A DNA stretch of 64,000 nucleotides from Lachnospiraceae bacterium (lineage in GTDB: Bacteria > Bacillota > Clostridia > Lachnospirales > Lachnospiraceae). A model generated the notes under the pieces. It ran no database searches, was not told the origin of the DNA, and worked only from the letters and a program-made list of their open reading frames with translations. The position numbers and the translations under genes were made by a program. The stretch covers positions 22,388 through 86,387 of the forward strand of contig JAKSRS010000002.1 in NCBI GenBank assembly GCA_024403515.1, written 5' to 3'. This document shows, one piece after another, positions 21,637 to 56,263 of this stretch. Each line of letters opens with the position of its first letter. The stretch's first letter is position 1.

Positions 21637-22704
21637 GTGAAAGCCTGGACTTTGAATTCTGTTAAGGATATTTCATATGGTGATGTCAGTAAGCCTGTTC
21701 CTTCTAAGGGAGAGGTTTTAGTTAAGGTTGCTGCTTGCGGGATTTGTGGTTCGGATATTCCAAGAATTTACCAAAACGGCGCCCACAAAATGCCCCTAAT
21801 TCCCGGCCATGAGTTTTCAGGAAGGGTTGAGGCTGTCTCGGATCCTTGTGATAACGATCTTTTAGGCGCAAAGGTTGGTGTTTTTCCGCTGATTCCCTGT
21901 ATGAAATGTTCATCGTGCCAAAAGAAAATGTACGAGATGTGTAAGTCCTATAGTTACCTCGGTTCAAGATGCGATGGTGGATTTGCGGACTATGTTTCGG
22001 TTCCTAAGTGGAATCTTATAAAACTTCCTGAAAATGTGTCATTTGAGGCGGCTGCTATGCTTGAACCAATGGCTGTTTCGGTTCATGCTATGAGAAAGGC
22101 TGACATTAAAGAATCCGATAGAGTCCTTGTATGGGGGGCCGGAACGATTGGGTTACTACTTACTATGTTTTTAAAGGATGCAGGGGTTGAAAGACTTATT
22201 CTTGTTGGAAATCATGATTACCAAAGGGATTATGCGACTCTTGTAGGGATTTCTCGTGAAAACTTTATTAATGTAAGTGACCGTGATCCGATAGAAATGA
22301 TTAATAAAGCAACTGATGGAGAAGGCGTGGATGTCTTCTTTGAATGTGTTGGTAAAAGCGAGATATTAAAAGATGCCATTAATGTTACTTCGATGGGCGC
22401 AAGCATTGTAACTGTTGGAAATCCCTATGGTGATGTTTCTTTAGCAAGAGATGATTACTGGAACATATTAAGGCATCAGCTTAAAATCTTTGGAACCTGG
22501 AATTCTTCCTTCTTAGGAGAAGAAGACCCGGATTCTTTGAATGATTCCTGGCACTATGTTTTAAAAAGGCTTGAAGAAGGGGCCATCCACCCTGAAAGAC
22601 TTATTAGTCACAGGCTTGATAAATCTGAGTTAGCAAAAGGTCTTGAGATAATGAGGGACAAAAGTCAGCCATACATTAAAGTAATGACGACGTGGGAGAA
22701 ATAA
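21637..22704 (+). CDS. Zn-dependent alditol-phosphate dehydrogenase (GatD/TarJ-like MDR)
   Basis: GTG start; CGICGSD, GHE, C..C..C...C structural Zn site, LEP, GAGTIG. Confidence 0.88.
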   Translation: MKAWTLNSVKDISYGDVSKPVPSKGEVLVKVAACGICGSDIPRIYQNGAHKMPLIPGHEFSGRVEAVSDPCDNDLLGAKVGVFPLIPCMKCSSCQKKMYEMCKSYSYLGSRCDGGFADYVSVPKWNLIKLPENVSFEAAAMLEPMAVSVHAMRKADIKESDRVLVWGAGTIGLLLTMFLKDAGVERLILVGNHDYQRDYATLVGISRENFINVSDRDPIEMINKATDGEGVDVFFECVGKSEILKDAINVTSMGASIVTVGNPYGDVSLARDDYWNILRHQLKIFGTWNSSFLGEEDPDSLNDSWHYVLKRLEEGAIHPERLISHRLDKSELAKGLEIMRDKSQPYIKVMTTWEK

Positions 22705-40055: not shown

Positions 40056-40165
40056 GAGTAAATTTACGGCAAAATCTTTAAGATGCATAAAAATTAATTC
40101 CACTTAACTTGTGTTAGTATCTTCTTGTAACAAAAAACTACATATTTTTGTACGGAGGAAAAATT

Positions 40166-41227
40166 ATGAAAAAGAAATTTTTAGCTCTCGCACTCGCAGC
40201 TACTATGGTAGCATCTTTATTCGCAGGATGCGGCAAGGCAGCTGGCAGCGACAACAAAGTAGGTGTAGCAATGCCTACAAAGGATTTGCAGAGATGGAAT
40301 CAGGATGGTTCTAACATGCAGAAAGAACTTGAAGCTAAGGGATACAAAGTAGACCTTCAGTACGCTTCAAATGATATCGCTACACAGGTATCACAGATTG
40401 AAAACATGATTAACTCAGGATGCAAGGTTCTTGTAATCGCTTCTATCGATGGTGATTCACTTGGAACAGTTCTTGAACAGGCTAAAGAAAAAGGTATCAA
40501 GGTTATCGCATATGACCGTTTGATCATGAACTCAGACGCAGTTTCATACTACGCTACATTTGATAACTACATGGTAGGTACAAAGCAGGGCGAATACATC
40601 AAAAATTCACTTGCACTTGATACAGCAGAAGGTCCTTTCAACATTGAAATCATCACAGGTGACCCTGGTGACAACAATGCAAGATTCTTCTACGGCGGCG
40701 CAATGGACGTTCTTCAGCCCTACATCGACAACGGCAAACTCGTTGTTAAGTCAGGTCAGATCGACTTCGCTACAGTAGCAACAGCTAACTGGTCAACAGA
40801 AAACGCTCAGAACAGATTCGATGCTATTATCTCAGCTAACTACGCTGATGGTACACAGCTTGATGCAGTTCTTGCTTCTAACGACTCAACAGCTATGGGT
40901 GTTACAAACTCACTTGAAGCTAACTACACAGGTGCATGGCCTCTTATCACAGGTCAGGACTGTGACGTTGCAAACGTTAAGAACATGATCGCTGGTAAGC
41001 AGTCAATGTCAATCTTCAAGGATACACGTACACTTGCTGTTAAGACAGTTGAAATGGTAGACGCTATCCTTAAGGGAACAGACGCTCCTGTAAACGATAC
41101 AAAAACATATGATAACGGAACAGGTATCATTCCTTCATACCTTTGCGAGCCCGTATTCGCAGATGTAAACAACTACAAGGAATTACTTATCGATTCTGGT
41201 TACTACAAAGAAGCAGACCTTCAGTAA
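40166..41227 (+). CDS. chvE: Multiple-monosaccharide ABC transporter substrate-binding lipoprotein
   Basis: FAGC lipobox; VGVAMPTKDLQRW..DG, YYATFDNYMVG, GDPGDNNA, MSIFKDTR. Confidence 0.9.
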   Translation: MKKKFLALALAATMVASLFAGCGKAAGSDNKVGVAMPTKDLQRWNQDGSNMQKELEAKGYKVDLQYASNDIATQVSQIENMINSGCKVLVIASIDGDSLGTVLEQAKEKGIKVIAYDRLIMNSDAVSYYATFDNYMVGTKQGEYIKNSLALDTAEGPFNIEIITGDPGDNNARFFYGGAMDVLQPYIDNGKLVVKSGQIDFATVATANWSTENAQNRFDAIISANYADGTQLDAVLASNDSTAMGVTNSLEANYTGAWPLITGQDCDVANVKNMIAGKQSMSIFKDTRTLAVKTVEMVDAILKGTDAPVNDTKTYDNGTGIIPSYLCEPVFADVNNYKELLIDSGYYKEADLQ

Positions 41228-41248
41228 TTAAATAACTTTAAAAAATGT

Positions 41249-41275
41249 GTAGGCGGGAGCTTCGGCCCCGCCTAC
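41249..41275 (+). other. Intercistronic stem-loop with cUUCGg tetraloop
   Basis: gtaggcggg-a-gc-ttcg-gc-cccgcctac between the SBP and ATPase genes. Confidence 0.7.
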
Positions 41276-41312
41276 TTTTAAGGAATATGTGAACAAGACA
41301 GGAGGAATACAA

Positions 41313-42839
41313 TTGGCTAAGATATTATTGGAAATGAAAAGCATAACCAAAACATTCCCCGGCGTTAAGGCACTTGACAATGTCAATTTGAAGGTAGAAG
41401 AAGGCGAAATTCACGCTCTTGTTGGAGAAAATGGTGCTGGGAAATCTACTTTAATGAACGTTTTAAGTGGTATTTATCCTTATGGATCATATGAAGGAGA
41501 TATCATTTACGACGGAGAAGTTTGTAAGTTTAATACAATTAAGGACAGCGAAGCCAAGGGAATTGTAATCATACATCAGGAGTTAGCTCTTATTCCTTAC
41601 ATGACCATTGGTGAAAATATGTTTCTGGGCAATGAACGCGGAAGCAAATTTAAAATAAATTGGAATGAAACGAATGAACTTGCAGCCAAGTATCTTGATA
41701 TCGTTGGATTGAAAGAAACACCGCAGGTTCTGATTAAAGATATAGGTGTTGGTAAGCAGCAGCTGGTTGAAATTGCCAAAGCACTTGCCAAGAACGCCAA
41801 ACTTCTTATTCTTGATGAGCCTACAGCCTCTTTGAATGAAGATGACTCCAAGGCACTCTTAGAGTTACTTCTTAAGTTCAAGAAAGAAGGAATGACATCA
41901 ATCATCATCTCGCATAAGCTCAACGAAATTTCTTATGTTGCAGATAAGATTACAGTTATTCGAGATGGTAGTACCATCGAGACTCTTGATAAGAAAGTTG
42001 ATGATTTTTCAGAAGCAAGAATTATCAAGGGCATGGTTGGTAGAGAAATTGCCGATCGTTTCCCTAAAAGAGAAAAGAACATCGGCGATGTTAAAATGGA
42101 AATTAAGGATTGGACAGTTTATCATCCGCTTTACAGCGAAAGAAAAGTTGTTGATAACGTTTCAATCAATGTTAAGAAGGGTGAAATCGTTGGTATTGCC
42201 GGACTCATGGGTGCTGGTAGAACAGAACTTGCAATGAGCGTATTCGGTAAAAGCTACGGTGACAACATTTCCGGACAGATATTTATCGACGGAGAAGAAG
42301 TTAACCTGGAAACAGTTGCATCAGCAATCGATCATAAGCTTGCTTACGTAACTGAAGACCGTAAAGGAAACGGACTTATCCTTTCTAATTCAATTAAAGT
42401 CAACACCTCACTTGCTAACCTTGATGAGATTAGTAAAAAAGGTGTTATTAATAAGGACGAAGAGTACAGGGTTGGAACTGAATACCGTGAAAAACTTAAG
42501 ATTAAATGTCCTACCATCGAGCAGAATGTTGGTAACTTAAGTGGTGGTAACATGCAGAAAGTTCTTCTTGCTAAGTGGATGTTTGCAAAGCCTGACGTCC
42601 TGATTCTTGACGAGCCTACCAGAGGTATTGACGTTGGTGCTAAGTATGAAATTTACTGCATCATGAATCAGCTTGTGGCTGAAGGAAAATCTGTCATCAT
42701 GATTTCTTCGGAAATGCCCGAAATACTCGGAATGTGTGACAGAATCTATGTAATGAATGAAGGTAAGATGGTCGGTGAGCTTGATGCTTCAGAGGCTACT
42801 CAGGAAGTAATCATGTCACAGATTATCAAGACCAGCTAG
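41313..42839 (+). CDS. mmsA: Multiple-monosaccharide ABC transporter ATP-binding protein
   Basis: TTG start after GGAGG; [14 protein letters not shown] twice, LSGGN. Confidence 0.92.
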
Positions 42840-42849
42840 GAGGAAAAAC

Positions 42850-44049
42850 ATGAAAAAGGGCAAAAATCTTGATTTCATTAAGAAATACACAATGATTATC
42901 GTTCTGGTTTTAGTATATATCTTCTTTGCTATTGAGACAGGAGGATCAATCCTTCTTCCCATGAACGTATCAAGTTTGATTTCACAGAACGCATATGTAT
43001 TTATTCTTGCAACCGGTATGTTACTTTGTATCTTAACCGGTGGTAACATCGACCTTTCAGTAGGTTCGGTAGTTTGTTTCGTTGGTGCAGTTGGTGCGGT
43101 ACTTATGGCTAATCTCAAGGTTAACATGTTTGTCGCAATCCTCGTTATGATTATTGTAGGTACAGCAATCGGTGCTTTCCAGGCATTCTGGATCGCATAC
43201 GTTCGTATCCCTCCTTTCATCGTAACACTTGCCGGAATGCTTGCATTCAGAGGTTTAAGTAACGTAATGTTAAACGGTCTTACTGTTTCAATTAAAGACT
43301 GCACATCATTCGTTAAATTGTTCGGTGGTGGTGCTGACTGCTTCATCCCTGACCCTCAGATATTTGTAAAAGTTGAAGGCTTCAACGTAGTTTGCTTAAT
43401 CGTTGGTGCGGTATCAATTATCGTATTCATTGCAATGCAGCTTACATCAAGACGTACAAAGATCAAGAAGAATTACGCTGTTGAAGGCGCAGCTGCTTTC
43501 TGGATTAAGACAGTACTTATAAGTGCAGTTATCTGTGCATTCACAGTTCAGCTTTCACGTCATAAAGGTATCCCTACAGTTCTTATCTGGGTTCTTTTAG
43601 TAGTACTTGTATATGGTTACATTACATCAAATACAACAACAGGTCGTTACTTCTACGCAGTAGGTGGTAATGAAAAGGCTACAAAGCTTTCAGGTATCAA
43701 CACAAACAAGGTTTACTTCCTTGCTTACACAAACATGGGATTTTTAGCAGCTTTAGCAGCTATGGTTACAATTGCTCGTCTTACATCAGCTCAGCCTACA
43801 TACGGCCAGAACTATGAAATGGATGCAATTGGTTCATGTTTCATCGGTGGTGCTTCTGCTTACGGTGGAACCGGTACAGTTCCCGGCGTTATCGTTGGTG
43901 CGGTTCTCATGGGTGTTATCAACTTAGGTATGTCACTTATGGGTGTTGACCAGAACATGCAGAAGGTTGTAAAGGGTCTCGTACTCCTTGCAGCAGTTAT
44001 CTTCGACGTTGTTTCAAAACGTGGTGGAAAGATGATTTCTAAAGACTGA
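42850..44049 (+). CDS. mmsB: Multiple-monosaccharide ABC transporter permease
   Basis: IDLSVGS, IPPFIVTLAGM, GRYFYAVGGN, EMDAI..CFIGG. Confidence 0.92.
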   Translation: MKKGKNLDFIKKYTMIIVLVLVYIFFAIETGGSILLPMNVSSLISQNAYVFILATGMLLCILTGGNIDLSVGSVVCFVGAVGAVLMANLKVNMFVAILVMIIVGTAIGAFQAFWIAYVRIPPFIVTLAGMLAFRGLSNVMLNGLTVSIKDCTSFVKLFGGGADCFIPDPQIFVKVEGFNVVCLIVGAVSIIVFIAMQLTSRRTKIKKNYAVEGAAAFWIKTVLISAVICAFTVQLSRHKGIPTVLIWVLLVVLVYGYITSNTTTGRYFYAVGGNEKATKLSGINTNKVYFLAYTNMGFLAALAAMVTIARLTSAQPTYGQNYEMDAIGSCFIGGASAYGGTGTVPGVIVGAVLMGVINLGMSLMGVDQNMQKVVKGLVLLAAVIFDVVSKRGGKMISKD

Positions 44050-44186: not shown

Positions 44187-45035
44187 TTAACTATTCTTTC
44201 GGTACTCACGTGGTGACTGACCGTAAAATTTTTTAAAGGCGTTAGTAAAGTGCTCTGAGGAAGAGTAACCAAGCTTTTCAGAAATCTCTGCAATACTGTC
44301 AGGCGTTTCTAAAAGAAGTAATCCCGCGGCAGACATTCTGGCGTGGGTTTTCATTTCAAGGAAGGTCTTGCCGTAGTGATTCTTTAGTATTCGCTCAGTC
44401 TGTCTAAGGCCAGTATTTATGGTCTGTGAAAGCATCTGTAGACTGATATCTTTATAGTTATATAAAAAGGCTTCTTCAATGGTAAGGTACATTAAATCCT
44501 CGGGACTTATGGTCTGGGTAACTGCTTTTACCTTTAGAGGAGCTTTCTTTTTGTATTTTCTTATGATTAAAAGTGTTAACTGCTTTAAAAGTGCAGGAAG
44601 CATCTGCTCATAACCAAATGGTTTTTCCTCAATTTCAAGAAGAATGGTATCCATTAGTCTTGAACAGTCCTCGCCTATAGGACCAATCCAGAAGGGCTTA
44701 CTTAAGAAAAGCTTCACGGGACTATCAGAGGGGAGTTTTCTTTCAACATCAATCTGAAGGTATATTCCATATTCTTCCATGGGGTCATCAGGATTTGAAA
44801 TCTGTTCATGATCAATCCCTGGGCCTGTCATATAAAAAAGTCCGGGAGTCAGTTCATACTTTTCCCCATCAGCAATCAAAGTTCCCTGGCCCTGTGAAAT
44901 ATAGTGCATTTCATAGGAATTTTTACTGTGGCTGTGTCTTGGGATGGGACCATATAACCAGTCTTTTCCTATACTAATCGTAGAAAAACTTGCACCATCA
45001 ATCTCAAAAGATATTTTCAAATCTCTGTATTTCAT
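44187..45035 (-). CDS. AraC-family regulator (cupin plus double HTH)
   Basis: HSHS..SYEMHY cupin; EKLGYSSSEHFTNAFKKFYG.SP; GGAG RBS before MKYRDLK. Confidence 0.9.
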   Translation of the reverse strand: MKYRDLKISFEIDGASFSTISIGKDWLYGPIPRHSHSKNSYEMHYISQGQGTLIADGEKYELTPGLFYMTGPGIDHEQISNPDDPMEEYGIYLQIDVERKLPSDSPVKLFLSKPFWIGPIGEDCSRLMDTILLEIEEKPFGYEQMLPALLKQLTLLIIRKYKKKAPLKVKAVTQTISPEDLMYLTIEEAFLYNYKDISLQMLSQTINTGLRQTERILKNHYGKTFLEMKTHARMSAAGLLLLETPDSIAEISEKLGYSSSEHFTNAFKKFYGQSPREYRKNS

Positions 45036-45294
45036 ATTATCTCCGTTTCGCTTGTAAAAACGATGTCTCAAACCACATTTAGGGGGCAGTAAAGTACCCA
45101 TTCAAGCCTTCTTGATATGGCCTGGTGGTGGACTATCTTAAAATATAAACGGGCAAAAGAAAAATATCAAGAAAAATGCGAAAATGCGACATAAAAATAT
45201 GCCATACGTCATTGCTAAGTCTTGTTTGTGCAGAAAAAACGACTTAATGTAGACTTATAAAGTTTGTGTTTTATTCCACTTAGGAGGGTTAGAA

Positions 45295-46494
45295 ATGATA
45301 GTAAAAGCTACGTATTTTCAAAATGACAGTGAAAAGCCTTTGGTATACGGAGATGTCGAAATCGACAACATAAAAAGGCAGCGCCTTAAGGGCGAAGAAG
45401 TTAAGGAAGGCATCCTTTGTGAGCCGGTCATGGTCGGCTTTTGCGGCACTGACAATGAGCTTATGAACATGGGAAGCCAGGGTAAGCTTACAGCTAAGTT
45501 TCCGCCCGGAAAAAACAGATTAATAAATGGTCATGAAGGTATTGTCTGGGTTCCTTCACAGAACAGATTTGCAATTGTACTGATAAGAGGTGGCAACAGC
45601 TACGATCCAACAAGATATACAGAAGACGAATCATACTTTGAATATGGCTGCGATCAGGCAGACGGGTTATTTTCTGATAAGCAGTACTTTAATCCGGATA
45701 TGCTTTTGCCTATCCCGGATGGATATGTAAAGGATGGAAAGCTGGATCTTTCTTTTGCCAAAAAGATGGTATTTCCTGATCCCTTTGCCTGCATGCTTTT
45801 CCAGTTAGAGAGAATGGAAGACATGGGAAGTGCTCATAACTTCAGACGCACAATGAAAAAGTATAAATGCTCTGAAGAGCAGGCAAGACTGATTGCCAAG
45901 GACGAAATCTTTAATAATACAGTCATTTTCGGACTTGGAACCACAGGAATGTTTATTGGCGATCTTATTATGAGAAATCATAAAGACGCTAATGTTTTAT
46001 TTGTTGCAAGAAGCCCCAAAGAGTCCAATAAGGTTTCTTTTGCCTTAAAAAATACTAAGGCTAAGTATCTTCAGAACACCTTCGATAGCGAGGAAGAACT
46101 TGCCAAAGCTATCGTAGAAAAGCTTGGCGGCAGGGCAACAACATTTATCGGAGTAAGTGGAAGCAACGTTGAGCACAGAATAGCCTTTGAACATAAGGTT
46201 CTTGGCTGTAACGGGCTTTATAACAGTTTTTCTTTAGGACCGAAGATTACATTCGATACAATGCCTTTTGGTTTTGAAAATCATCTTATTATCGCATCTA
46301 TCAACTTCAGACAGGACCACATGGAGGAAGCGATTAAGCTTTTGGCTGAAAGCAACTACGATGAAATTGTTGAACTAATTGATAAGGATGAGTTTATTAA
46401 AGATCCGATTGATGCATATAAGAATAAAATTTACAGCAAAAACGCCCCTATGAAGACTGCGGTTATCTGGAATAAGCAGTATATAGACATGTAG
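45295..46494 (+). CDS. Zn-dependent MDR dehydrogenase, glucose-1-dehydrogenase-like (candidate L-galactose dehydrogenase)
   Basis: GFCGTD, NGHEG, GLGTTG; lacks the four-Cys structural Zn loop. The substrate is inferred from context. Confidence 0.65.
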   Translation: MIVKATYFQNDSEKPLVYGDVEIDNIKRQRLKGEEVKEGILCEPVMVGFCGTDNELMNMGSQGKLTAKFPPGKNRLINGHEGIVWVPSQNRFAIVLIRGGNSYDPTRYTEDESYFEYGCDQADGLFSDKQYFNPDMLLPIPDGYVKDGKLDLSFAKKMVFPDPFACMLFQLERMEDMGSAHNFRRTMKKYKCSEEQARLIAKDEIFNNTVIFGLGTTGMFIGDLIMRNHKDANVLFVARSPKESNKVSFALKNTKAKYLQNTFDSEEELAKAIVEKLGGRATTFIGVSGSNVEHRIAFEHKVLGCNGLYNSFSLGPKITFDTMPFGFENHLIIASINFRQDHMEEAIKLLAESNYDEIVELIDKDEFIKDPIDAYKNKIYSKNAPMKTAVIWNKQYIDM

Positions 46495-46552: not shown

Positions 46553-47575
46553 ATGAAAACAGTTCATATTAGTAAACCATTTGAAATTGAAGTTATTGAT
46601 ACCAAAGAACCTGTAGCCAAAGAAGGCGAGGCTCTTTTAAAGATTTTGTATGGGGGTATCTGTGGCGCTGATGTTGCAAGCTACACGGGAAATCAGCCCT
46701 TTACAACATACCCTCGAATTCCCGGACACGAGTTTAGCGCCCAGATTGTAACAATCCCTGAAAATGATAAGGGACTTAAACCCGGAGATATCGTAACCTG
46801 CAACCCTTATTTTAACTGCAAGACCTGCTATTCCTGCAGACGCGGTTTTGTAAACTGCTGTACTGACAATCAGACAATGGGTGTACAGCGTGACGGTGCT
46901 TTCAGAGAGTACATCTCAATGCCTGTTGAAAGAATCTATGATGGAAAGGGCCTTTCGGCCAAAGAACTTGCCTTGGTTGAACCTTTTACCATTAGCTACC
47001 ATGCACTTCACCGCGCATGCATATCAGCAGGGGACCGAGTTCTTGTTGTTGGCGCCGGTCCTATCGGTTTATTTGCCTTAATAGCTGCTAAGGCCCAGGG
47101 GGCTGAGGTTTATGTTGCTGATATTTTGGATGGAAGACTTGAAAAGGCTCTTCACTTTGGCGCAGATGGCGTCATTAATTCCAAGAAGGAAGACATTAAA
47201 GAAGCTGCTATGAGAATAACAAACGGCGATGGCTTTGACGTGTGTGTTGAAGCATGTGGCCAGTCAGTGACCTTTATGGCCTGCATCGACTGTGCAGCAT
47301 TTGCAGGAAACATCATTTTAATTGGAAATGGAAAGAAGGAGACGACTTTCCTTCACTCAATACTTCTTAAGAAGGAACTCAATGTCTTTGGAAGCAGAAA
47401 TTCCTTCCCTGTAGATTTTGAGGCAGTAATTGATCTTATTTCCAAGGGTGAAGTAAACGTCCTTGATATGGTAAGCGATATCTATCCGGTATCCCGTGCC
47501 GATGAAGCATTTAAGGCGCTTGTTGATAACGACGGAAGTCTTTGCAAGGTTTTGATATCCTTCGAGGAGGAATAA
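46553..47575 (+). CDS. Zn-dependent sugar-acid dehydrogenase, L-galactonate 5-dehydrogenase (YjjN/LgoD)-like
   Basis: GICGAD...GNQPF.TYPRIPGHE, C..C..C..C, GAGPIG, KKELNVFGSRN. Confidence 0.8.
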   Translation: MKTVHISKPFEIEVIDTKEPVAKEGEALLKILYGGICGADVASYTGNQPFTTYPRIPGHEFSAQIVTIPENDKGLKPGDIVTCNPYFNCKTCYSCRRGFVNCCTDNQTMGVQRDGAFREYISMPVERIYDGKGLSAKELALVEPFTISYHALHRACISAGDRVLVVGAGPIGLFALIAAKAQGAEVYVADILDGRLEKALHFGADGVINSKKEDIKEAAMRITNGDGFDVCVEACGQSVTFMACIDCAAFAGNIILIGNGKKETTFLHSILLKKELNVFGSRNSFPVDFEAVIDLISKGEVNVLDMVSDIYPVSRADEAFKALVDNDGSLCKVLISFEEE

Positions 47576-47576
47576 A

Positions 47577-48458
47577 ATGGGAAAATACATGGCAATAGAT
47601 TCGCATGTTCACCTGTGGGAAGTAGAGCATGGAATAGTAAATGATAGGCCTGTATATTCGATTGGAAACGGTAAGGTCGACTTTGGAGGTGAGATTCGCC
47701 AGATGATGCCTCCTTACATGGAAGACAATAAAAACACCGTTGAAAGACTCATTGCAAACATGGATTATGCAGGTGTCAATGCAGCTGTCATTACACAGGA
47801 ATATATAGATGGAAATCAGGATAAATACCTTCTTGAGTGCCAAAGAAAGTATCCCGACAGGATAAAGATTTTTTCTTTGTATGAAGAAAATGATGACTAT
47901 CTTCTTGATGGCTTTGACGGTCTTAAGATATGCGCCGCCAAGTTTAAAGACAAGGATTTAAAAAGGCTTTTGCCGGTATTTAAAAAGGTGGAAGCTGAAG
48001 GGAAGATCCTCGCAATAGAGCTATTTGATGGTGACAGTCAGGTTGAAGATATGAAGTATCTTATCGATAAATGTCCTGATCTAAAAATATCAATAGGCCA
48101 CTTTGGCATGGTAACAACCAAAGGCTGGCAAGAGCAGATAAAGCTTGCCTGCAATAAAAATGTCTACATTGAAAGCGGCGGACTTACCTGGCTTTTTCAT
48201 AAGGAGTTTTACCCTTATGATTCGGCAATCGATGCCATTAAAGAAGCAATCGATATCTGCTCTGTAGATAAGCTTATGTGGGGAAGCGACTATCCAAGGA
48301 CAATGACAGACATCACCTATATCATGTCCCTTCGATTTGTCGAGGAAACTAATAAACTTACCGAAGAAGAAAAGAAAGCATTTTTAGGGCTTAACGCCCA
48401 AAGGTTCTATGGATTTGGACCAATGAAGAAAATGGAAGATATTAAAAATATGCTTTAG
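47577..48458 (+). CDS. Amidohydrolase-family sugar lactonase (cog3618; L-galactono/L-fucono-1,5-lactonase-like)
   Basis: IDSHVHLW, GEIRQMMPPYM, NMDYAGV..AVITQEYIDG, IGHFG, WGSDYP. Confidence 0.8.
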   Translation: MGKYMAIDSHVHLWEVEHGIVNDRPVYSIGNGKVDFGGEIRQMMPPYMEDNKNTVERLIANMDYAGVNAAVITQEYIDGNQDKYLLECQRKYPDRIKIFSLYEENDDYLLDGFDGLKICAAKFKDKDLKRLLPVFKKVEAEGKILAIELFDGDSQVEDMKYLIDKCPDLKISIGHFGMVTTKGWQEQIKLACNKNVYIESGGLTWLFHKEFYPYDSAIDAIKEAIDICSVDKLMWGSDYPRTMTDITYIMSLRFVEETNKLTEEEKKAFLGLNAQRFYGFGPMKKMEDIKNML

Positions 48459-48501
48459 GGTTAACAACAAAAAATACGAATGATATTTGGGAGGAAAAAG
48501 A

Positions 48502-49947
48502 ATGTTTACACCGGATTTTAAATCACTTACAACCTATGAGTGCCCTGAGTGGTACAAGGATGCCAAGTTTGGTATCTGGAGTCACTGGGGACCTCAGTGC
48601 GTACCGATGGTTGGGGACTGGTACGCAAGAAATATGTATATTCAGGGGTCTGAACAGTACAATCACCATGTTCGTACATACGGACATCCTTCGAAGTTTG
48701 GCTACAAAGATATTGTAAAACTATGGAAGGCCGAAAACTTTGATCCTGATGCACTTATGGAGAAATATTATAAGGCCGGCGCAAGATTTTTCGTGGCTCA
48801 GGCTTCTCATCATGATCATTTCTTTAACTACGCAACAAAGTTAAACCGCTTCAATTCAGTAGAAATGGGTCCTCATAAGGATATCGTAGGACTCTGGCAG
48901 CAGGCGGCCAAAAAGTACGACCTTCCTTTTGGTATTACAGAGCATTTGGGAGCTTCTTTTGGCTGGTGGAGATCCAATAAAGGCCACGATACCTATGGCC
49001 CTTATAAGGGAGTACCCTACGACGGAAATGACCCTGAATACAGAGATTTTTATCATGATAATTATGAGCATGTAGCCAAGGAAGGCGAGGAAGATAAGTG
49101 GACCTGGCTTACACCAAACCCCAAGTTTAGAGAATACTGGCTTAAGGTTATGAAGGAAATTATAGATAATTATCACCCTGATATGCTCTATTCCGACAGT
49201 TTCCTTCCTTTCAGTGAAAAAGGCGACATTTCTGATGAACCGGAATATAAGCTGGGACTTGAAGCTGTTGCATATCTTTACAATGACAATATCCGTAGAA
49301 ACGGAAGCAATCAGGCCGTCTACACACAAAAGAGCCGTGATGAAGATATTTACAAGGTCGGAGTTTTGGACATTGAAAGAAGTCAGCTTCCTACACCGCT
49401 TCCCGTGCCGTGGCAGTCAGAAACCTGCATTGGAGAGTGGTTCTACAAAAAGCAGATTAAGTACAAGACACCAAGACATATCCTTGACATTCTTGTTGAT
49501 ACTATATCCAAAAACGGAACCATGCTTTTAAACATTCCTCAAAGACCTGACGGAACTATCGATGAGGAAGAAGAATGGATTCTTTCAGAACTTGCGGACT
49601 GGTTTGCAATAAACTCTGAGGCTGTATATAAGACCCGCCCTTACAAGATTGCGGCTGAAGGTCATGCAAGTGTAGCAATCTCAGGCTTTACCGAAGAAGA
49701 AGTAAAGTGGGATGACGACGACTTTAGATTTGTTACTAAAGATGGCAATTTGTATGTATATATCATGAAAACCAAGGATAGAAAGACTACTGTTGTAAAG
49801 AGTCTTTCTGAGGATGAAGCGGTTAAAAGCGCAACTTTACTTGGCGGTGGAGAACTTTCTTTTGCTCAGCATAATGGCGTTTTGACACTGGATTTACCTA
49901 ATGAGCTTCCTTCGGAATATCCTTGTGTGGTTAAACTTACTTTTTAA
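48502..49947 (+). CDS. GH29 alpha-L-fucosidase-family hydrolase (possible alpha-L-galactosidase)
   Basis: PEWYKDAKFGIWSHWG, HHDHF, LYSD nucleophile, WQSETCIG.WFY, GTMLLNIP; no signal peptide. Confidence 0.9.
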   Translation: MFTPDFKSLTTYECPEWYKDAKFGIWSHWGPQCVPMVGDWYARNMYIQGSEQYNHHVRTYGHPSKFGYKDIVKLWKAENFDPDALMEKYYKAGARFFVAQASHHDHFFNYATKLNRFNSVEMGPHKDIVGLWQQAAKKYDLPFGITEHLGASFGWWRSNKGHDTYGPYKGVPYDGNDPEYRDFYHDNYEHVAKEGEEDKWTWLTPNPKFREYWLKVMKEIIDNYHPDMLYSDSFLPFSEKGDISDEPEYKLGLEAVAYLYNDNIRRNGSNQAVYTQKSRDEDIYKVGVLDIERSQLPTPLPVPWQSETCIGEWFYKKQIKYKTPRHILDILVDTISKNGTMLLNIPQRPDGTIDEEEEWILSELADWFAINSEAVYKTRPYKIAAEGHASVAISGFTEEEVKWDDDDFRFVTKDGNLYVYIMKTKDRKTTVVKSLSEDEAVKSATLLGGGELSFAQHNGVLTLDLPNELPSEYPCVVKLTF

Positions 49948-49992: not shown

Positions 49993-50430
49993 ATGTTAAA
50001 AGGAATATCACCCCTTCTTTCGCCCGAACTTTTAAAGGTTTTATGCGAGATGGGACACAGCGATACAATAGTAATAGCGGACGGAAATTTCCCAGCTGAG
50101 ACCATGGGAAAAGATGGGATTGTAATCAGAATGGACGGACACGGAGTGCCTGAAATTTTAGAAGCAATACTTGAAGTTTTCCCTTTAGATCAGTATGTTG
50201 AAAAGCCTGTAAGCCTGATGGAAAGATGCGAAGGCGATAATGCTGACGTATCAATCTGGAAAAAATACGATGCTCTTGTAGAAAAGTACGAAGAAAGAGG
50301 CACAAAGGTTATACAGAAACTTGAAAGATTTGCCTTTTACGATGAAGCAAAGAAGGCTTATGCAATTATTGCAACAAGTGAAACAAGTCAGTACGCAAAT
50401 GTTATTTTGCAGAAAGGTTGTGTGCTTTGA
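49993..50430 (+). CDS. fucU: L-fucose mutarotase (RbsD/FucU family)
   Basis: MLKGISPLLSPELL..L.EMGH.D.IV.ADGNFP, RFAFY..AK, Y.NVILQKG. Confidence 0.93.
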   Translation: MLKGISPLLSPELLKVLCEMGHSDTIVIADGNFPAETMGKDGIVIRMDGHGVPEILEAILEVFPLDQYVEKPVSLMERCEGDNADVSIWKKYDALVEKYEERGTKVIQKLERFAFYDEAKKAYAIIATSETSQYANVILQKGCVL

Positions 50431-52322
50431 AAAGTAGAGGAGAAGTAAAATTTGCTGGAGACGGATACGCAGGCTTTTATTCCTGCGGTCTTACAATGCA
50501 GGACAGCAATACCTTTAAAGCTTTCAAGGAGATTTCGTCAACAGATACAGAGACTGTCTATGAAAATCCGGATAAGGTAAGACTTGTGGTTTCACATGTA
50601 TACGACGAAGCGACTGATACGACAAGAATTGAAACCAGCATTACAAATAATTCAAATAAGGATGTAAAGCTTGAGATGCTTACTTCCTTTATGCTTGGTG
50701 GTATTAAGGCGGATAAGATTATCCGCTTTACCTCTTTTTGGAGTGCTGAAGGCAGGATGAAGACCGATACGATTGCGGACTTAAATCTCGAGCAGGCCTG
50801 GAATCATATGGCTTTTAGAGTCGAAAAGTTTGGTTCGGTCGGCTCGATGCCCGTTAGAAGATATTTTCCTTTTGTGGCAGCAGTAGACAGCGAAACAAAC
50901 ACTTATACTGCAGTGCAGCTTTACTGTCCCTCATCCTGGCAGATGGAAGTGACTGTTAGGCACGATGATAATTTAACACTTAGCGGAGGAATTGCAGACG
51001 CTGATTTTGGAGCATGGACTAAGGTTTTAAAGAAAAATGAAACATTCGTAGCTCCCCGTGCAGTTGCAGCGGTTGGTCACTCCATCGATGATGTCTGCCA
51101 CAAAATCGTAAGTGCACAAAAGCCCGATGTAAGCCCTGTCGATACTGATATGGCAATTGCATTTAATGAATACTGCACTACCTGGGGAGACCCTTCTACT
51201 GAGAATATGAAAAAGATTGCCGACAAGCTTGAAGGCAAGGGTATTAAGTACCTTGTCATGGATTCGGGCTGGTATGGTGAGGACGGTTTTTCGGGCTACT
51301 GGTTTGAAAATACAGGTGACTGGAGAGTAAATAAGGCCAAGTTTCCCGGTGGTATTAAGGAGATGACTTCTTATATAAGGTCCAAGGGAATGATTCCCGG
51401 TATCTGGTTTGAATTTGAAGTTGTAACACCTAAGTGTGATATTTTCTATATGGACGACCACCTGGTTAAAAAGGACGGCGTTCCATTAACTGTTGGCGAC
51501 AGACGTTACCTTGATATGGAAGATCCGTGGGTAATAAACCATCTTAAAGAAAAGGTAATTGACTTTTTAAAGGAAAATGACTTTGGATATATTAAGGTTG
51601 ATTACAACGATTCACTTGGTCTTGGCGTGGAAGGCCCCGACGGACTGGGTGAAAACTTAAGAAGAAAGATCGCAGCAACCCAGGATTTCTTTAAACTTAT
51701 GAAAAAAGAAATTCCTGACCTTGTTATTGAAAACTGCTCAAGCGGAGGACACAGATTAGAAGCATCCTTTATGGAAATCGCCTCACAGGCAAGCTTTTCG
51801 GATGCACATGAAATAGTGCAGCTTCCAATCATAGCAGCCAATACCCAGCGCCTTGTGAAACCTTCACAGACACAGATTTGGTCAGTAATGAGAAAAGAGG
51901 ATTCTGACAATAGAATTTACTATTCAATGTGTGCTACAATGTTAGGGCGAATGGGACTTAGCGGAGATATATACAATCTTTCCGATGACCAGTGGAAACT
52001 CGTCGACGATGCCATGGACTTTTACAGGAAGTCTTCGGATATCATTAAAAACGGAAAGACAATAGTAAATCTTTGTGACACAATAAGCTATAACAACCCT
52101 ACGGGTGGCCAGTTAGTTGTCCGCATCAAGGGAGATACCGGCTTACTTGTTTACCATCGCTTTGAAAAATCTACTGATCTTGAAGAATTTGTTGATAAAA
52201 ATGACATTCTTTCCATAGTAGCCAAAGAAAACGCTTCGTGGAAGGAAATGGACATTATCGAGGAGTATGGTAAGGCCCAAGATGACTTTAGTGCCATGGC
52301 CTGCATCTTTAAGATTCAGTAA
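50418..52322 (+). CDS. GH36 alpha-galactosidase-like hydrolase (start may be TTG 50427)
   Basis: YLVMDSGW, GDW, PGIWFEFE, YIKVDYN, IENCSSGGHR. Confidence 0.88.
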   Translation: MCALKSRGEVKFAGDGYAGFYSCGLTMQDSNTFKAFKEISSTDTETVYENPDKVRLVVSHVYDEATDTTRIETSITNNSNKDVKLEMLTSFMLGGIKADKIIRFTSFWSAEGRMKTDTIADLNLEQAWNHMAFRVEKFGSVGSMPVRRYFPFVAAVDSETNTYTAVQLYCPSSWQMEVTVRHDDNLTLSGGIADADFGAWTKVLKKNETFVAPRAVAAVGHSIDDVCHKIVSAQKPDVSPVDTDMAIAFNEYCTTWGDPSTENMKKIADKLEGKGIKYLVMDSGWYGEDGFSGYWFENTGDWRVNKAKFPGGIKEMTSYIRSKGMIPGIWFEFEVVTPKCDIFYMDDHLVKKDGVPLTVGDRRYLDMEDPWVINHLKEKVIDFLKENDFGYIKVDYNDSLGLGVEGPDGLGENLRRKIAATQDFFKLMKKEIPDLVIENCSSGGHRLEASFMEIASQASFSDAHEIVQLPIIAANTQRLVKPSQTQIWSVMRKEDSDNRIYYSMCATMLGRMGLSGDIYNLSDDQWKLVDDAMDFYRKSSDIIKNGKTIVNLCDTISYNNPTGGQLVVRIKGDTGLLVYHRFEKSTDLEEFVDKNDILSIVAKENASWKEMDIIEEYGKAQDDFSAMACIFKIQ

Positions 52323-54064: not shown

Positions 54065-54451
54065 ATGGCTAATATCATTTTATGTACGGGAAAACTTAAG
54101 GTCTATGAGGACTTAAAATATCTGTGTGAGTTTACGGGAAAAGGCGATGACTTTAGAGACTCATTGTGGGAAGCTCTTTCTAACTGGGAAGAGCTTTATG
54201 ATGAGTTTGCCTATTACATAGATAATCATGCCCTTAAAGACCAGCTAAGCATTTTAGGATATTCGCTTACTGACTTATATATCCACATGATAGAAAATTA
54301 TAATCTTTTAAATGATACCGGAAAGAATACCTTCCTTTGCAATAAAGAGGCCATGGTCCTTGAAAGTTTCATGGGTATGTGGAAACTTAAAGAAAATCCT
54401 CAGGAATATGTTAAAAAGCTTGAGGCCGGCAGAGGAATGGATTTATTATAG
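54065..54451 (+). CDS. Hypothetical protein (128 aa)
   Basis: Operonic spacing and native-looking codon use; no motif recognised. Confidence 0.65.
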   Translation: MANIILCTGKLKVYEDLKYLCEFTGKGDDFRDSLWEALSNWEELYDEFAYYIDNHALKDQLSILGYSLTDLYIHMIENYNLLNDTGKNTFLCNKEAMVLESFMGMWKLKENPQEYVKKLEAGRGMDLL

Positions 54452-54493: not shown

Positions 54494-56263
54494 ATGCAGG
54501 ATAGTAACAGATTAAAACCCATTATTATTGACGACAACAACTACAGATACGATTCTTTTAAGAACGGAAAAGTAGTTCTTGGTAAAAAGAAAAATCACCT
54601 CCCGGCAATGGGCTGGAACAGCTGGAATGCTTTTGGTAGTGGAAACACTGAAGCATTAACCAAAACTATGGCTGACTTAATTGTAGAACTTGGACTTGAT
54701 AAGCTTGGATATAAGTACGTAGTACTTGATGACGGCTGCTACAAGCAGGAGCGTGTGAATGACCTTCTTTCGAATGAAGAAGTAAAGTTCCCGTCTGACT
54801 TTAGATCACTTGCCGATTATATTCATGCCAAGGGTCTTAAATTTGGTATGTACAATGATATAGGAACCAATCTTTGTGCAGGTGCAGCAGTAGGAACCTG
54901 CGGTTTTGAAAAGGACGATGCCAATTCTTATACCAAGTGGGATGTCGATTTTTTGAAGGTTGATAACTGTTATTACCTTTGGGATAACGCTACATTTTCG
55001 GATGCTAATAATGCAAAGTATGTCTTTGCTCCCAATTTAAAGAGCCTTAAAGTAGATGGAAAAGTATACTCTGCCAAGGATGCTGTAATTACAGGAAGCA
55101 GAGCCGAGATTAAGGATGATTATGTGACATTTATTGGAACCTATGACGGAACAGGCCCCGGACCTTCACCTGTTGGAGAAAGAAGCTCCGAAGTGGTCTT
55201 CGATGTAGAAGTTTTAAAAGATGGTCAGTATGAAGTGTCACTTGAATATGCAACCGGTTCAGTTGAAGGCGTAGGACAGTGGCTTCAGCTTGCCGTTGAT
55301 AGTGAGATTTTCTATGATGATTTTGTAGAGGCAACTCAGTCTGAAGAAAGCTTCATCTGGGGTAAGCCCATACAAGTTACCTTAAAAGCAGGTGTTAACA
55401 AAATCAGAGTAATGAACCATAGAAGACAGGAAAATACTCTGTGCTCTTATGCTGCTTTGCTTGAAGGACTTAATATAGCAAATCCCGACCACGATGTAAT
55501 TCTTTCTATCTGTGAGTGGGGTAAGACAAATCCTCAGAACTGGGGATACAAGGTAGGAGACTCATGGAGAATCTTAAATGATATTACTTTCAGAGTTGGT
55601 GCCGATGGAGATCCCGGCTACGGAGCATGGCAGGCAGATTATACAACAAGCGTAATGGCTCAGTATAATAAGGCAGTAATCATGGACGAGTTTGCTGGCC
55701 TTGATAAGGGTTGGAATGACCCTGATATGTTAATGATTGGTATGACCGGTCTTGATATGACAATGAATAAATCTCACATGACAATGTGGGCTATGATGAA
55801 TTCACCCTTAATGCTTGGAATCGATTTAAGAAGAGTTAAAAAGGGCGATGAAATCTATAACATCATTTCCAATGAAAAGGTTATTGCACTTAATCAGGAT
55901 GCCCTTGGTGTTCAGGCCAAGAGAGTTTATTCTTCACTTTGCCAAGGTAAAGCTGACGAAGAGTACATTACAAACAATGACCGTGTAGATATTCTTGCAA
56001 AGCCGCTTTCAGACGGAAGCCTTGCGCTGTCATTTATTAACTGTAGTGAAGAGCTTAAAGATGCCGGTTACAGTATTACTCTTGATGAAATTGTTGAAAA
56101 GATTGGAAATAAAATGACAGATGTTGATAAGTTTAAAAATGCAGCAGCATATAAACTTACTGATGTCTGGACAGGTGAAGTTATGGAACTTTCAGGTAAG
56201 ACAATAGAAGTATCCAAACTTTCGGCCTGCGATAACGTAACTTATATTGTTTCAGCTATGTAG
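54494..56263 (+). CDS. GH27 alpha-galactosidase-family hydrolase with internal CBM-like insertion
   Basis: PAMGWNSW, VLDDG, FLKVDNC nucleophile, SICEWG, WRI..DI, GWNDPDML. Confidence 0.9.
   Translation: MQDSNRLKPIIIDDNNYRYDSFKNGKVVLGKKKNHLPAMGWNSWNAFGSGNTEALTKTMADLIVELGLDKLGYKYVVLDDGCYKQERVNDLLSNEEVKFPSDFRSLADYIHAKGLKFGMYNDIGTNLCAGAAVGTCGFEKDDANSYTKWDVDFLKVDNCYYLWDNATFSDANNAKYVFAPNLKSLKVDGKVYSAKDAVITGSRAEIKDDYVTFIGTYDGTGPGPSPVGERSSEVVFDVEVLKDGQYEVSLEYATGSVEGVGQWLQLAVDSEIFYDDFVEATQSEESFIWGKPIQVTLKAGVNKIRVMNHRRQENTLCSYAALLEGLNIANPDHDVILSICEWGKTNPQNWGYKVGDSWRILNDITFRVGADGDPGYGAWQADYTTSVMAQYNKAVIMDEFAGLDKGWNDPDMLMIGMTGLDMTMNKSHMTMWAMMNSPLMLGIDLRRVKKGDEIYNIISNEKVIALNQDALGVQAKRVYSSLCQGKADEEYITNNDRVDILAKPLSDGSLALSFINCSEELKDAGYSITLDEIVEKIGNKMTDVDKFKNAAAYKLTDVWTGEVMELSGKTIEVSKLSACDNVTYIVSAM

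Follow-up and report, generated by a model that had tools for sequence, protein, structure and literature searches.

The locus and its first gene

The stretch of DNA analyzed here (the window; 64,000 nt from contig JAKSRS010000002.1 of a rumen/gut Lachnospiraceae bacterium, assembly GCA_024403515.1) carries at positions 45295 to 46494 an open reading frame (ORF) whose 399-amino-acid (aa) product resembles the medium-chain dehydrogenases/reductases (MDRs). This protein, referred to below as the target, is most likely the first enzyme of a six-gene mobile L-galactose cassette. Its gene is the first of a tight operon on one strand, with successive gaps of 58, 1, 28, and 45 nt. The order of the operon is target, a 340-aa zinc-dependent MDR (MDR340), an Amidohydro_2 hydrolase, a GH29 glycosidase, a FucU-type mutarotase, a GH36-like protein, two esterases, and a GH27 protein. 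The features that bear on the target are:

44187..45101, minus strand: AraC-family regulator, divergent from the operon (Pfam HTH_18 72.6 bits, Cupin_2, AraC_binding)
45282..45288, plus strand: Shine-Dalgarno-like AGGAGGG, 7 nt before the target ATG, read from the sequence
45295..46494, plus strand: target gene, 399 aa, stop-free; divergent MDR similar to archaeal glucose dehydrogenases, proposed L-galactose 1-dehydrogenase
46553..47575, plus strand: MDR340, 340-aa classical zinc-dependent MDR with a structural-zinc lobe; LgoD homologue, probable L-galactonate 5-dehydrogenase
47577..48458, plus strand: Amidohydro_2 (COG3618-type) hydrolase (Pfam Amidohydro_2 96.8 bits); probable L-galactono-lactone lactonase
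48487..49947, plus strand: GH29 alpha-L-fucosidase-family glycosidase (Pfam Alpha_L_fucos 272 bits)
49993..50430, plus strand: FucU-type mutarotase (Pfam RbsD_FucU 151 bits)

The translated ORF contains GFCGTD at residues 48–53 (C50, D53), GHEG at 79–82 (H80/E81), and the Rossmann motif GLGTTG at 213–218. D162-P163, within FPDP (F160-P-D162-P163), is found where MDRs usually have Glu-Pro. Residues 93–125 hold a single cysteine (C119) in place of the four structural-zinc cysteines that MDRs have there; in the family-profile alignment this segment stands opposite the cysteine-rich CGICRNC...C of the S. solfataricus glucose 1-dehydrogenase (SsGDH). An earlier note, made from the letters of the window, had listed GFCGTD, GHEG, the Asp-Pro, and the lack of structural-zinc cysteines and had placed the gene first in an operon that lacks an aldo/keto reductase (AKR); all of this agrees with the translation and the gene map. 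Across an alignment of 21 homologues, the most distant at 39% identity, there is no variation at C50, D53, H80, E81, E116, D162, or G213/G215/G218, nor at T52 or N337.

A sequence-isolated family

Homologues of the target form 2153 clusters at 90% identity, the best 120 of which are full length and 81–87% identical to it. This abundance marks the target as a real gene under strong constraint and not a chance ORF. At source, the homologues are annotated as "hypothetical protein" or, generically, as "threonine dehydrogenase-like Zn-dependent dehydrogenase". One copy (locus L052, 7367-8635) has an insertion of ~24 residues (RSFSDCTPESEDKLCGSKIDYSGS) after the beta-2/helix region.

The Pfam scan of the target yielded nothing above threshold: its sole match was to Glu_dehyd_C (14.4 bits, cut-off 34.9), with neither ADH_N nor ADH_zinc_N, and the NCBIfam scan gave no match. 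When 1.84 billion representatives were scanned exhaustively with HMMER, there were 136 matches, mostly fragments of the target's own family. The distant relatives among them were three full-length proteins (62%, 43%, and 40% identity) and P0158 (306 aa, 31%). A bridge to classical MDRs had been expected; because not one of the 136 matches was a classical MDR, we regard the family as sequence-isolated. A search of the PDB with the target as single sequence matched only the motif region (residues 43–92), and a family profile was needed to reach further.

Predicted fold and active site

The family profile was built from the 21 members, and an AlphaFold2 model of the target was built on the same alignment. 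In the PDB, the profile reached archaeal glucose 1-dehydrogenases and nothing else: those of S. solfataricus (2cd9, E = 4.2e-8) and H. mediterranei (2b5w, E = 4.1e-5), and 3wic (E = 0.043). The model has a mean pLDDT of 83.2 and a pTM of 0.85. Foldseek comparison of the model with the PDB ranked the H. mediterranei enzyme (HmGDH, 2b5w) first (E = 5.4e-16, TM 0.64/0.70) and SsGDH (2cdb) second, followed by generic MDRs (TM0436, RspB, sorbitol and threonine dehydrogenases). There were 189 PDB matches at E ≤ 0.001, and all among the 50 matches listed were MDR-type dehydrogenases. The likeness to archaeal glucose 1-dehydrogenases that the earlier note had seen in the motifs was thus recovered both by profile and by structure. 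The predicted fold is that of a two-domain MDR with a GroES-like catalytic domain and a Rossmann nucleotide-binding domain. In the model, G213-L-G215-T-T-G218 is placed at the junction of strand 209–212 and helix 216–228, an extra helix (194–204) separates the Asp-Pro motif from the Rossmann fold, and pLDDT falls below 50 where other MDRs have the structural-zinc lobe (within residues 93–125).

In HMMER alignments, C50, H80, and E81 of the target pair with C39, H66, and E67 of SsGDH, which we take to be its catalytic-zinc ligands, and T52, E116, and N337 pair with T41, E114, and N307, which presumably contact the sugar. Both sets of SsGDH residues are said to have been described by Milburn and co-workers in 2006. 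C50, H80, and E81 are therefore named here as putative catalytic-zinc ligands, with D162 as a possible fourth. The end of strand beta-2 reads F-V-A-R239-S240 in the target and M-A-N-R-R in SsGDH. The lack of an acidic residue there suggests use of NADP+ or of both cofactors, probably with a preference for NADP+.

Conservation of the cassette across genomes

When one genome per species was scanned, 155 species had a relative of the target, and the best 80 loci (77–87% identity) were used for neighborhood counts by tblastn and by ORF clustering; ranges below give the differing counts of the two methods. These loci come from Lachnospiraceae, Acetatifactor, Butyrivibrio, Ruminococcus-labelled metagenome-assembled genomes (MAGs), Candidatus Faeciplasma, and two Treponema MAGs. 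Nearly all of the samples are from rumen or hindgut (ruminants, rabbit, chicken, mouse, human). One of the copies, L039:8001-9206, belongs to a cultured strain, Lachnospiraceae bacterium YSD2013. The conserved neighbors of the target are:

LgoD-like MDR, adjoining the target: 70–77 of 80 loci
Lactonase-type Amidohydro_2 protein: 61–62 of 80 loci
FucU: 51–58 of 80 loci
AraC regulator, divergent upstream of the target, 44–53% identity, found in reordered cassettes too: 43–44 of 80 loci
Mannitol-dehydrogenase-family gene (UxaB): 38 of 80 loci
GD_AH dehydratase (UxaA family): 36 of 80 loci

No further conserved neighbor was found in the 80 loci beyond these six. Where present, the UxaB and UxaA genes are insertions that separate the LgoD-like gene from the lactonase gene, and genes missing from a locus are mostly accounted for by contig ends. 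In the 50 long loci, those whose sequence extends 6.5 kb or more downstream, the lactonase was found in 48 by clustering, or in 49 if a tblastn match in L009 is counted. The earlier note had made its proposal depend on linkage to lactonase genes; this linkage is close to complete in the long loci and survives both reordering and divergence to 62% identity. At the thresholds used, no homologue of the GH29 gene was detected in the 80 loci; a GH29 gene is present in L090.

More distant copies have other gene orders. In a draw of one genome per Lachnospiraceae genus, the target gene was present in 8 of 401 genomes, and it was absent from a same-genus relative. Four copies from this draw (67–71% identity) lie in rearranged cassettes. 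Three have the order lactonase, target, LgoD-like gene, directly followed by UxaA and UxaB genes in L096 only; the fourth (L099) reads target, LgoD-like gene, lactonase. FucU was not detected in any of the four. Around the 62% relative (P0122) the order is target, LgoD-like gene, UxaB, lactonase, with a GH29 gene further on. Since the trio of target, LgoD-like gene, and lactonase is kept through rearrangement and through divergence to 62% identity, it bears the signature of functional coupling.

The whole cassette shows 77–81% protein identity between Lachnospiraceae, other Clostridia, and spirochaete MAGs; the cross-taxon copies are in Treponema MAGs (L048, L080), Candidatus Faeciplasma (L069, L072), and Ruminococcus-labelled MAGs (L074-L078). 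Identity across phyla is high, yet only the 8 of 401 Lachnospiraceae genera carry the gene, which suggests that, if the MAGs are binned correctly, the cassette has recently moved horizontally between bacteria of herbivore guts. A class-level draw with the lactonase as query, aimed at lactonase clusters with another first dehydrogenase, returned only the target's own genome and none of 398 others. Displacement inside the Clostridia could not be demonstrated in this way because the cassette is too rare in such a draw.

Assignment of the pathway steps

The bacterial route known from Luteolibacter LG18 runs from L-galactose through L-galactono-lactone, L-galactonate, D-tagaturonate, and D-altronate to 2-keto-3-deoxygluconate (KDG) (PMC12632266). 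The same source relates this route for P. vulgatus from Hobbs 2014.

MDR340 shares 37% identity over 338 aa (E = 9e-69) with LgoD of E. coli K-12, which is annotated as L-galactonate oxidoreductase. It scores 196 bits with NCBIfam PRK10083, below the cut-off, and its best PDB match is RspB (4ilk). Hence MDR340 is probably an L-galactonate 5-dehydrogenase that would convert L-galactonate to D-tagaturonate. The target has no significant similarity to either LgoD or MDR340.

The family profile of the lactonase-type hydrolase matched only 4i6k, the LigI-like hydrolase 2ffi, and 4dlf in the PDB; the last we take to be a Burkholderia L-fucono-1,5-lactonase. Because the profile reaches only the lactonase branch of Amidohydro_2 structures, the protein is probably an L-galactono-lactone lactonase, and its HxH...H...D metal or catalytic residues are invariant. 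The FucU protein scores 135.8 bits with the NCBIfam L-fucose mutarotase model (cut-off 141) and 46.9 bits with RbsD. L-Fucose is 6-deoxy-L-galactose, and this FucU probably converts alpha- to beta-L-galactopyranose.

The UxaB of the cassette matches the tagaturonate reductase model NF002969 with 549 bits (cut-off 359), compared with 87.6 bits for fructuronate reductase, and the GD_AH gene encodes an enzyme of the UxaA/galactarate-dehydratase family. In the genome that contains the window, UxaC, UxaB, and UxaA genes lie together outside the cassette (contig C63), and a 2-keto-3-deoxy-6-phosphogluconate aldolase gene (KdgA) adjoins a gene for a KdgK-like PfkB kinase (contig C61). Every later step of the pathway therefore has a dedicated gene in the cassette or elsewhere in the genome, and only the first oxidation is left, as is the target. 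Because MDR340 takes the L-galactonate step and the target alone remains among the conserved genes, we assign the aldose-to-lactone step to the target. The earlier note had already put the gene at this step, and the computational evidence favors that placement.

Aldo/keto reductases

The characterized L-galactose dehydrogenases (BVU_0219, LguA, plant GalDH) form one cluster (PMC12632266), and LguA is a metal-free member of the AKR superfamily with an Asp/Tyr/Lys/His tetrad (PMC13661200). No AKR gene is present in the target's operon, and none was found in or near any of the 80 cassettes. Four AKR-domain ORFs exist in the genome, each with a C-terminal Fe-S extension and each outside the sugar clusters. 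One of these paralogues is in the window, at about 1414–2577. Another, outside the window (genome G000, C120:3516-4562, minus strand), encodes a 348-aa AKR with a C-terminal two-cluster Fe-S extension. Full-text literature searches found no description of an MDR-type L-galactose dehydrogenase or of this cassette.

Proposed function and alternatives

We propose, with a probability of roughly 0.65, that the physiological function of the target is that of an L-galactose 1-dehydrogenase (EC 1.1.1.316), a zinc-dependent, NAD(P)+-linked MDR that displaces the AKR-type enzyme. We are distinctly more confident of the general statement that the target is an NAD(P)-dependent sugar 1-dehydrogenase that feeds the adjacent lactonase. 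Gene context is decisive for the functional reading: the proposed oxidation of L-galactose to L-galactono-lactone by the target is based on the logic of the cassette. Fold class, conserved motifs, gene linkage, and the full set of genes for the downstream steps are what the analysis shows; that zinc is bound, and which substrate, cofactor, and lactone take part, is what we infer in the scheme below.

A GH29-type retaining glycosidase would release alpha-L-galactose, the anomers of which FucU would equilibrate. The target would bind beta-L-galactopyranose, with the C1 hydroxyl polarized by zinc on C50, H80, and E81 and with D162 as a possible fourth, exchangeable ligand. Transfer of the C1 hydride to NAD(P)+ would then give L-galactono-lactone, as suggested by the chemistry of SsGDH and HmGDH (PMC9795676). 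The Amidohydro_2 lactonase would open the lactone and the LgoD-like MDR would oxidize L-galactonate to D-tagaturonate; genes for both are present. UxaB and UxaA, whether cassette-borne or housekeeping, would lead to KDG, to be followed by KdgK and KdgA. In this scheme the target would be a non-orthologous replacement for the AKR-type enzyme that oxidizes L-galactose in Bacteroides, Luteolibacter, and plants.

Several observations weigh against assigning this function. The active-site equivalences are weak, since Pfam and NCBIfam fail to classify the target, and they come from weak alignments and an unrefined model. D162 corresponds to the Glu of the Glu-Pro motif by motif position only, the HMMER alignment ending before it. 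Segments 99–120 and 314–327, both highly conserved in sequence, are modeled with low confidence, and they might form the pocket. One long locus, L052, has no detectable lactonase gene downstream of UxaB and UxaA. The relatives at 40–43% identity are found in unrelated clusters, which means that the substrate is not fixed by the fold. L-Fucose or D-arabinose, which share the C2–C4 configuration, could be equal or better substrates. Finally, the N-terminal 200 residues of the C120 AKR match plant and Luteolibacter L-galactose dehydrogenase structures (E = 1e-16 to 3e-11, 46–64 bits), and this Fe-S protein could in principle supply the activity.

We consider it unlikely that the main substrate is another sugar of the same C2–C4 configuration (L-fucose, D-arabinose), or that the enzyme is broadly promiscuous. 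A FucU-type mutarotase in the cassette and GH29 fucosidase-family genes in the window and in L090 would suit such a role; archaeal MDR aldose dehydrogenases are promiscuous, and the S. solfataricus arabinose dehydrogenase (SsAraDH) reportedly prefers L-fucose and D-arabinose. However, the LgoD-like, tagaturonate reductase, and UxaA-family partners fit only the conversion of L-galactonate to D-tagaturonate and beyond, 6-deoxy or pentonic acids cannot yield a uronate, and the cassette has no conserved dehydratase for fuconate or arabinonate. Promiscuity in vitro is plausible; another sugar as the physiological substrate does not fit the uronate-pathway partners. A role on some other intermediate, either as a reductase of D-galacturonate to L-galactonate that bypasses UxaC or as a polyol or cyclitol dehydrogenase, strikes us as quite improbable. 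Some cassettes have UxaB and UxaA without UxaC, and the cluster around the 43% relative (dehydroquinate [DHQ]-synthase-like protein, PfkB kinase, nucleotidyltransferase, CDP-alcohol transferase) suggests cyclitol chemistry. But the conserved lactonase and mutarotase imply an aldose-to-lactone step, and the fold and aligned residues match those of aldose 1-dehydrogenases. The UxaC bypass was rejected on the same lactonase and mutarotase genes and on the presence of UxaC beside UxaB and UxaA in the target's own genome, where no bypass is needed.

Context by itself cannot order the two dehydrogenases of the cassette, both of which have the MDR fold, so one may ask whether MDR340 oxidizes L-galactose and the target is the L-galactonate 5-dehydrogenase. 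This exchange of roles is highly improbable and was rejected on the comparison with LgoD: MDR340 resembles LgoD over its full length and has the hexonate dehydrogenase-type RspB as its best PDB match. For the target, no similarity to LgoD could be detected, and its matches are confined to aldose 1-dehydrogenases. We give equally little credence to oxidation of L-galactose by an unlinked enzyme, such as an AKR with an Fe-S extension, with the target as an accessory or in another role. The similarity of the C120 protein to L-galactose dehydrogenases is confined to its N-terminal 200 residues and is no better than that to unrelated AKRs in the same list. We therefore rejected it as the likely L-galactose dehydrogenase, its similarity being generic to AKRs, and kept it as a minor rival. 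Moreover, no AKR is co-localized with any of the 80 cassettes, and an accessory role would not explain 77–87% conservation together with strict linkage.

We lean toward a wider reading. The target family would be a zinc MDR, and not an AKR, that evolved independently as a second type of L-galactose 1-dehydrogenase and that marks a mobile cassette spread horizontally among herbivore-gut Lachnospiraceae, Ruminococcus-like Clostridia, and Treponema; the relatives at 40–43% would have been recruited to other chemistry, possibly of cyclitols or of C1-linked sugars.

Distant relatives

Because the relatives at 40–43% identity sit in unrelated clusters, the assignment is limited to the clade with at least 62% identity. 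P0124 (43%, 407 aa; L085:1-13033, GCA_040961665.1, JBFOMY010005954.1) keeps the C/H/E/D motif residues. It lies with three B12-binding or SPASM radical-SAM proteins, a methyltransferase, a PfkB kinase, a DHQ-synthase-like sugar-phosphate cyclase, a nucleotidyltransferase, and a CDP-alcohol phosphatidyltransferase. This looks like a cluster for biosynthesis of a modified cyclitol or sugar-alcohol phospholipid head group.

P0127 (40%, 409 aa; L086:5067-14877, ENA ERZ24794672; also three contigs of near-identical sequence, L087-L089) has four URO-D-family proteins and two classical MDRs as neighbors, with a PF04199 "cyclase" hydrolase directly upstream. Also in this cluster, which is of sugar or C1 type, are an OMPdecase/RraA-like fusion and a SIS-domain protein (hexulose-phosphate synthase/isomerase-like).

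Other genes in the window

Three further features accompany the operon:

40148..44049, plus strand: ChvE/GguA/GguB-type multiple-monosaccharide ABC transporter (NCBIfam ChvE 477.6 and GguB 474.8 bits, both above cut-off)
50418-52322: GH36-like protein with a Melibiase domain; weak match to a Bacteroides beta-L-arabinopyranosidase model (135 bits, cut-off 1100)
54494-56263: GH27 protein, downstream of the L-galactose genes and separated from the GH36-like protein by two PF00756 esterases

The AraC-family protein, with its cupin sensor and HTH_18 domains, is likely a sugar-responsive activator of the operon. The transporter is a possible uptake system specific to the window and outside the conserved cassette, no transporter homologue having been found beside the target in the 80 loci. 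The GH29 enzyme may be an alpha-L-galactosidase or fucosidase that supplies the sugar, as an accessory part. The start of the GH36-like gene overlaps the stop of the FucU gene. As GH36-like, GH27, and two esterase genes follow the L-galactose genes, the operon would appear to process decorated, possibly feruloylated heteroxylan or pectin side chains of plants.

An ORF of 128 aa between the esterases and the GH27 gene (54065-54451) has no Pfam match. A second classical zinc-dependent MDR paralogue, 24 kb upstream (window 21667-22701; G000 C44:44054-45088), is 27% identical to the LgoD-like protein. Promoter-like sites in the window were no commoner than in shuffled sequences; terminator-like sites were modestly commoner (18 versus 11.2 ± 3.5).

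Significance

Rhamnogalacturonan-II, some xyloglucans, and cereal heteroxylans are among the plant cell-wall polymers that contain L-galactose. As far as is known, Phocaeicola vulgatus and Luteolibacter are the only bacteria in which the breakdown of this sugar has been elucidated, and in each the route begins with an AKR. If the assignment of the target is correct, ~2,000 "hypothetical" proteins of rumen and gut metagenomes would acquire a function, Firmicutes and spirochaetes would have a complete L-galactose route, and pathway-reconstruction tools would no longer score these organisms as lacking its first step. It would also be a clean case of non-orthologous displacement in a conserved pathway, and it would add a bacterial, mesophilic branch without structural zinc to the aldose-dehydrogenase MDRs. 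The enzyme may find use in L-sugar biocatalysis or L-galactose sensing. No new kind of chemistry or system is involved, MDR aldose dehydrogenases being already known.

Comparison with known systems

With the archaeal glucose 1-dehydrogenases (SsGDH, 2CD9/2CDB; HmGDH, 2B5W/2VWG) the target shares the two-domain MDR fold, the GxCGTD, GHE, and GxGxxG motifs, and residues aligned with T41, E114, and N307. As in these NADP-using enzymes, no acidic residue is present at the end of beta-2 (A-R-S in the target, N-R-R in the archaeal enzyme). SsGDH and most tetrameric MDRs have a four-cysteine structural-zinc lobe, which is missing from the target and is not known in HmGDH either. In other respects the target differs. 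It is only about 18% identical to these enzymes, below Pfam thresholds, and ~40 residues longer, ~25 of the extra residues (with helix 194–204) lying between the Asp-Pro motif and the Rossmann fold. Its Asp-Pro is presumably Glu-Pro in HmGDH and Gln-Pro in SsGDH. It is bacterial, from anaerobes, and its context points to an L-configured hexose, not D-glucose or D-xylose.

The AKR L-galactose dehydrogenases (P. vulgatus BVU_0219, Luteolibacter LguA/Lu-LGDH 9W6Y/9W7A, plant GalDH) would share with the target the proposed reaction and the place in the pathway (PMC12632266), as well as operon partners: a lactonase, an L-galactonate dehydrogenase, UxaB- and UxaA-type enzymes, and an AraC-type regulator. 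In contrast to the Rossmann/GroES-like zinc MDR architecture of the target, they are metal-free TIM barrels with an Asp/Tyr/Lys/His tetrad (PMC13661200). The target has no Aldo_ket_red Pfam match and no sequence similarity to that family, of which it would be an analogue and not a homologue. E. coli LgoD (YjjN) is likewise an MDR of L-galactonate catabolism; its homologue here is the neighboring MDR340 (37%) and not the target.

SsAraDH is said, in work by Brouns and co-workers in 2007, to act on sugars of D-arabinose, L-fucose, and L-galactose configuration. Since it accepts such configurations, oxidation of L-galactose by an MDR would not be unprecedented. The family profile did not detect this enzyme (2H6E) at E values up to 1, and it is outside the top 50 Foldseek matches. 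Like the target, SsAraDH is a zinc-dependent aldose 1-dehydrogenase of the MDR fold (PMC9795676), but it is archaeal, belongs to a pentose pathway, has the structural-zinc lobe, and has no link to the LgoD/UxaB/UxaA route. The "new class" of the earlier note is somewhat overstated in that MDR aldose 1-dehydrogenases were established with SsGDH and SsAraDH (PMC9795676). Because curated models fail to recognize it and the structural-zinc lobe is absent, the target family is best described as a putative new, isolated bacterial branch of the archaeal-type MDR aldose 1-dehydrogenases, and not as a new category.

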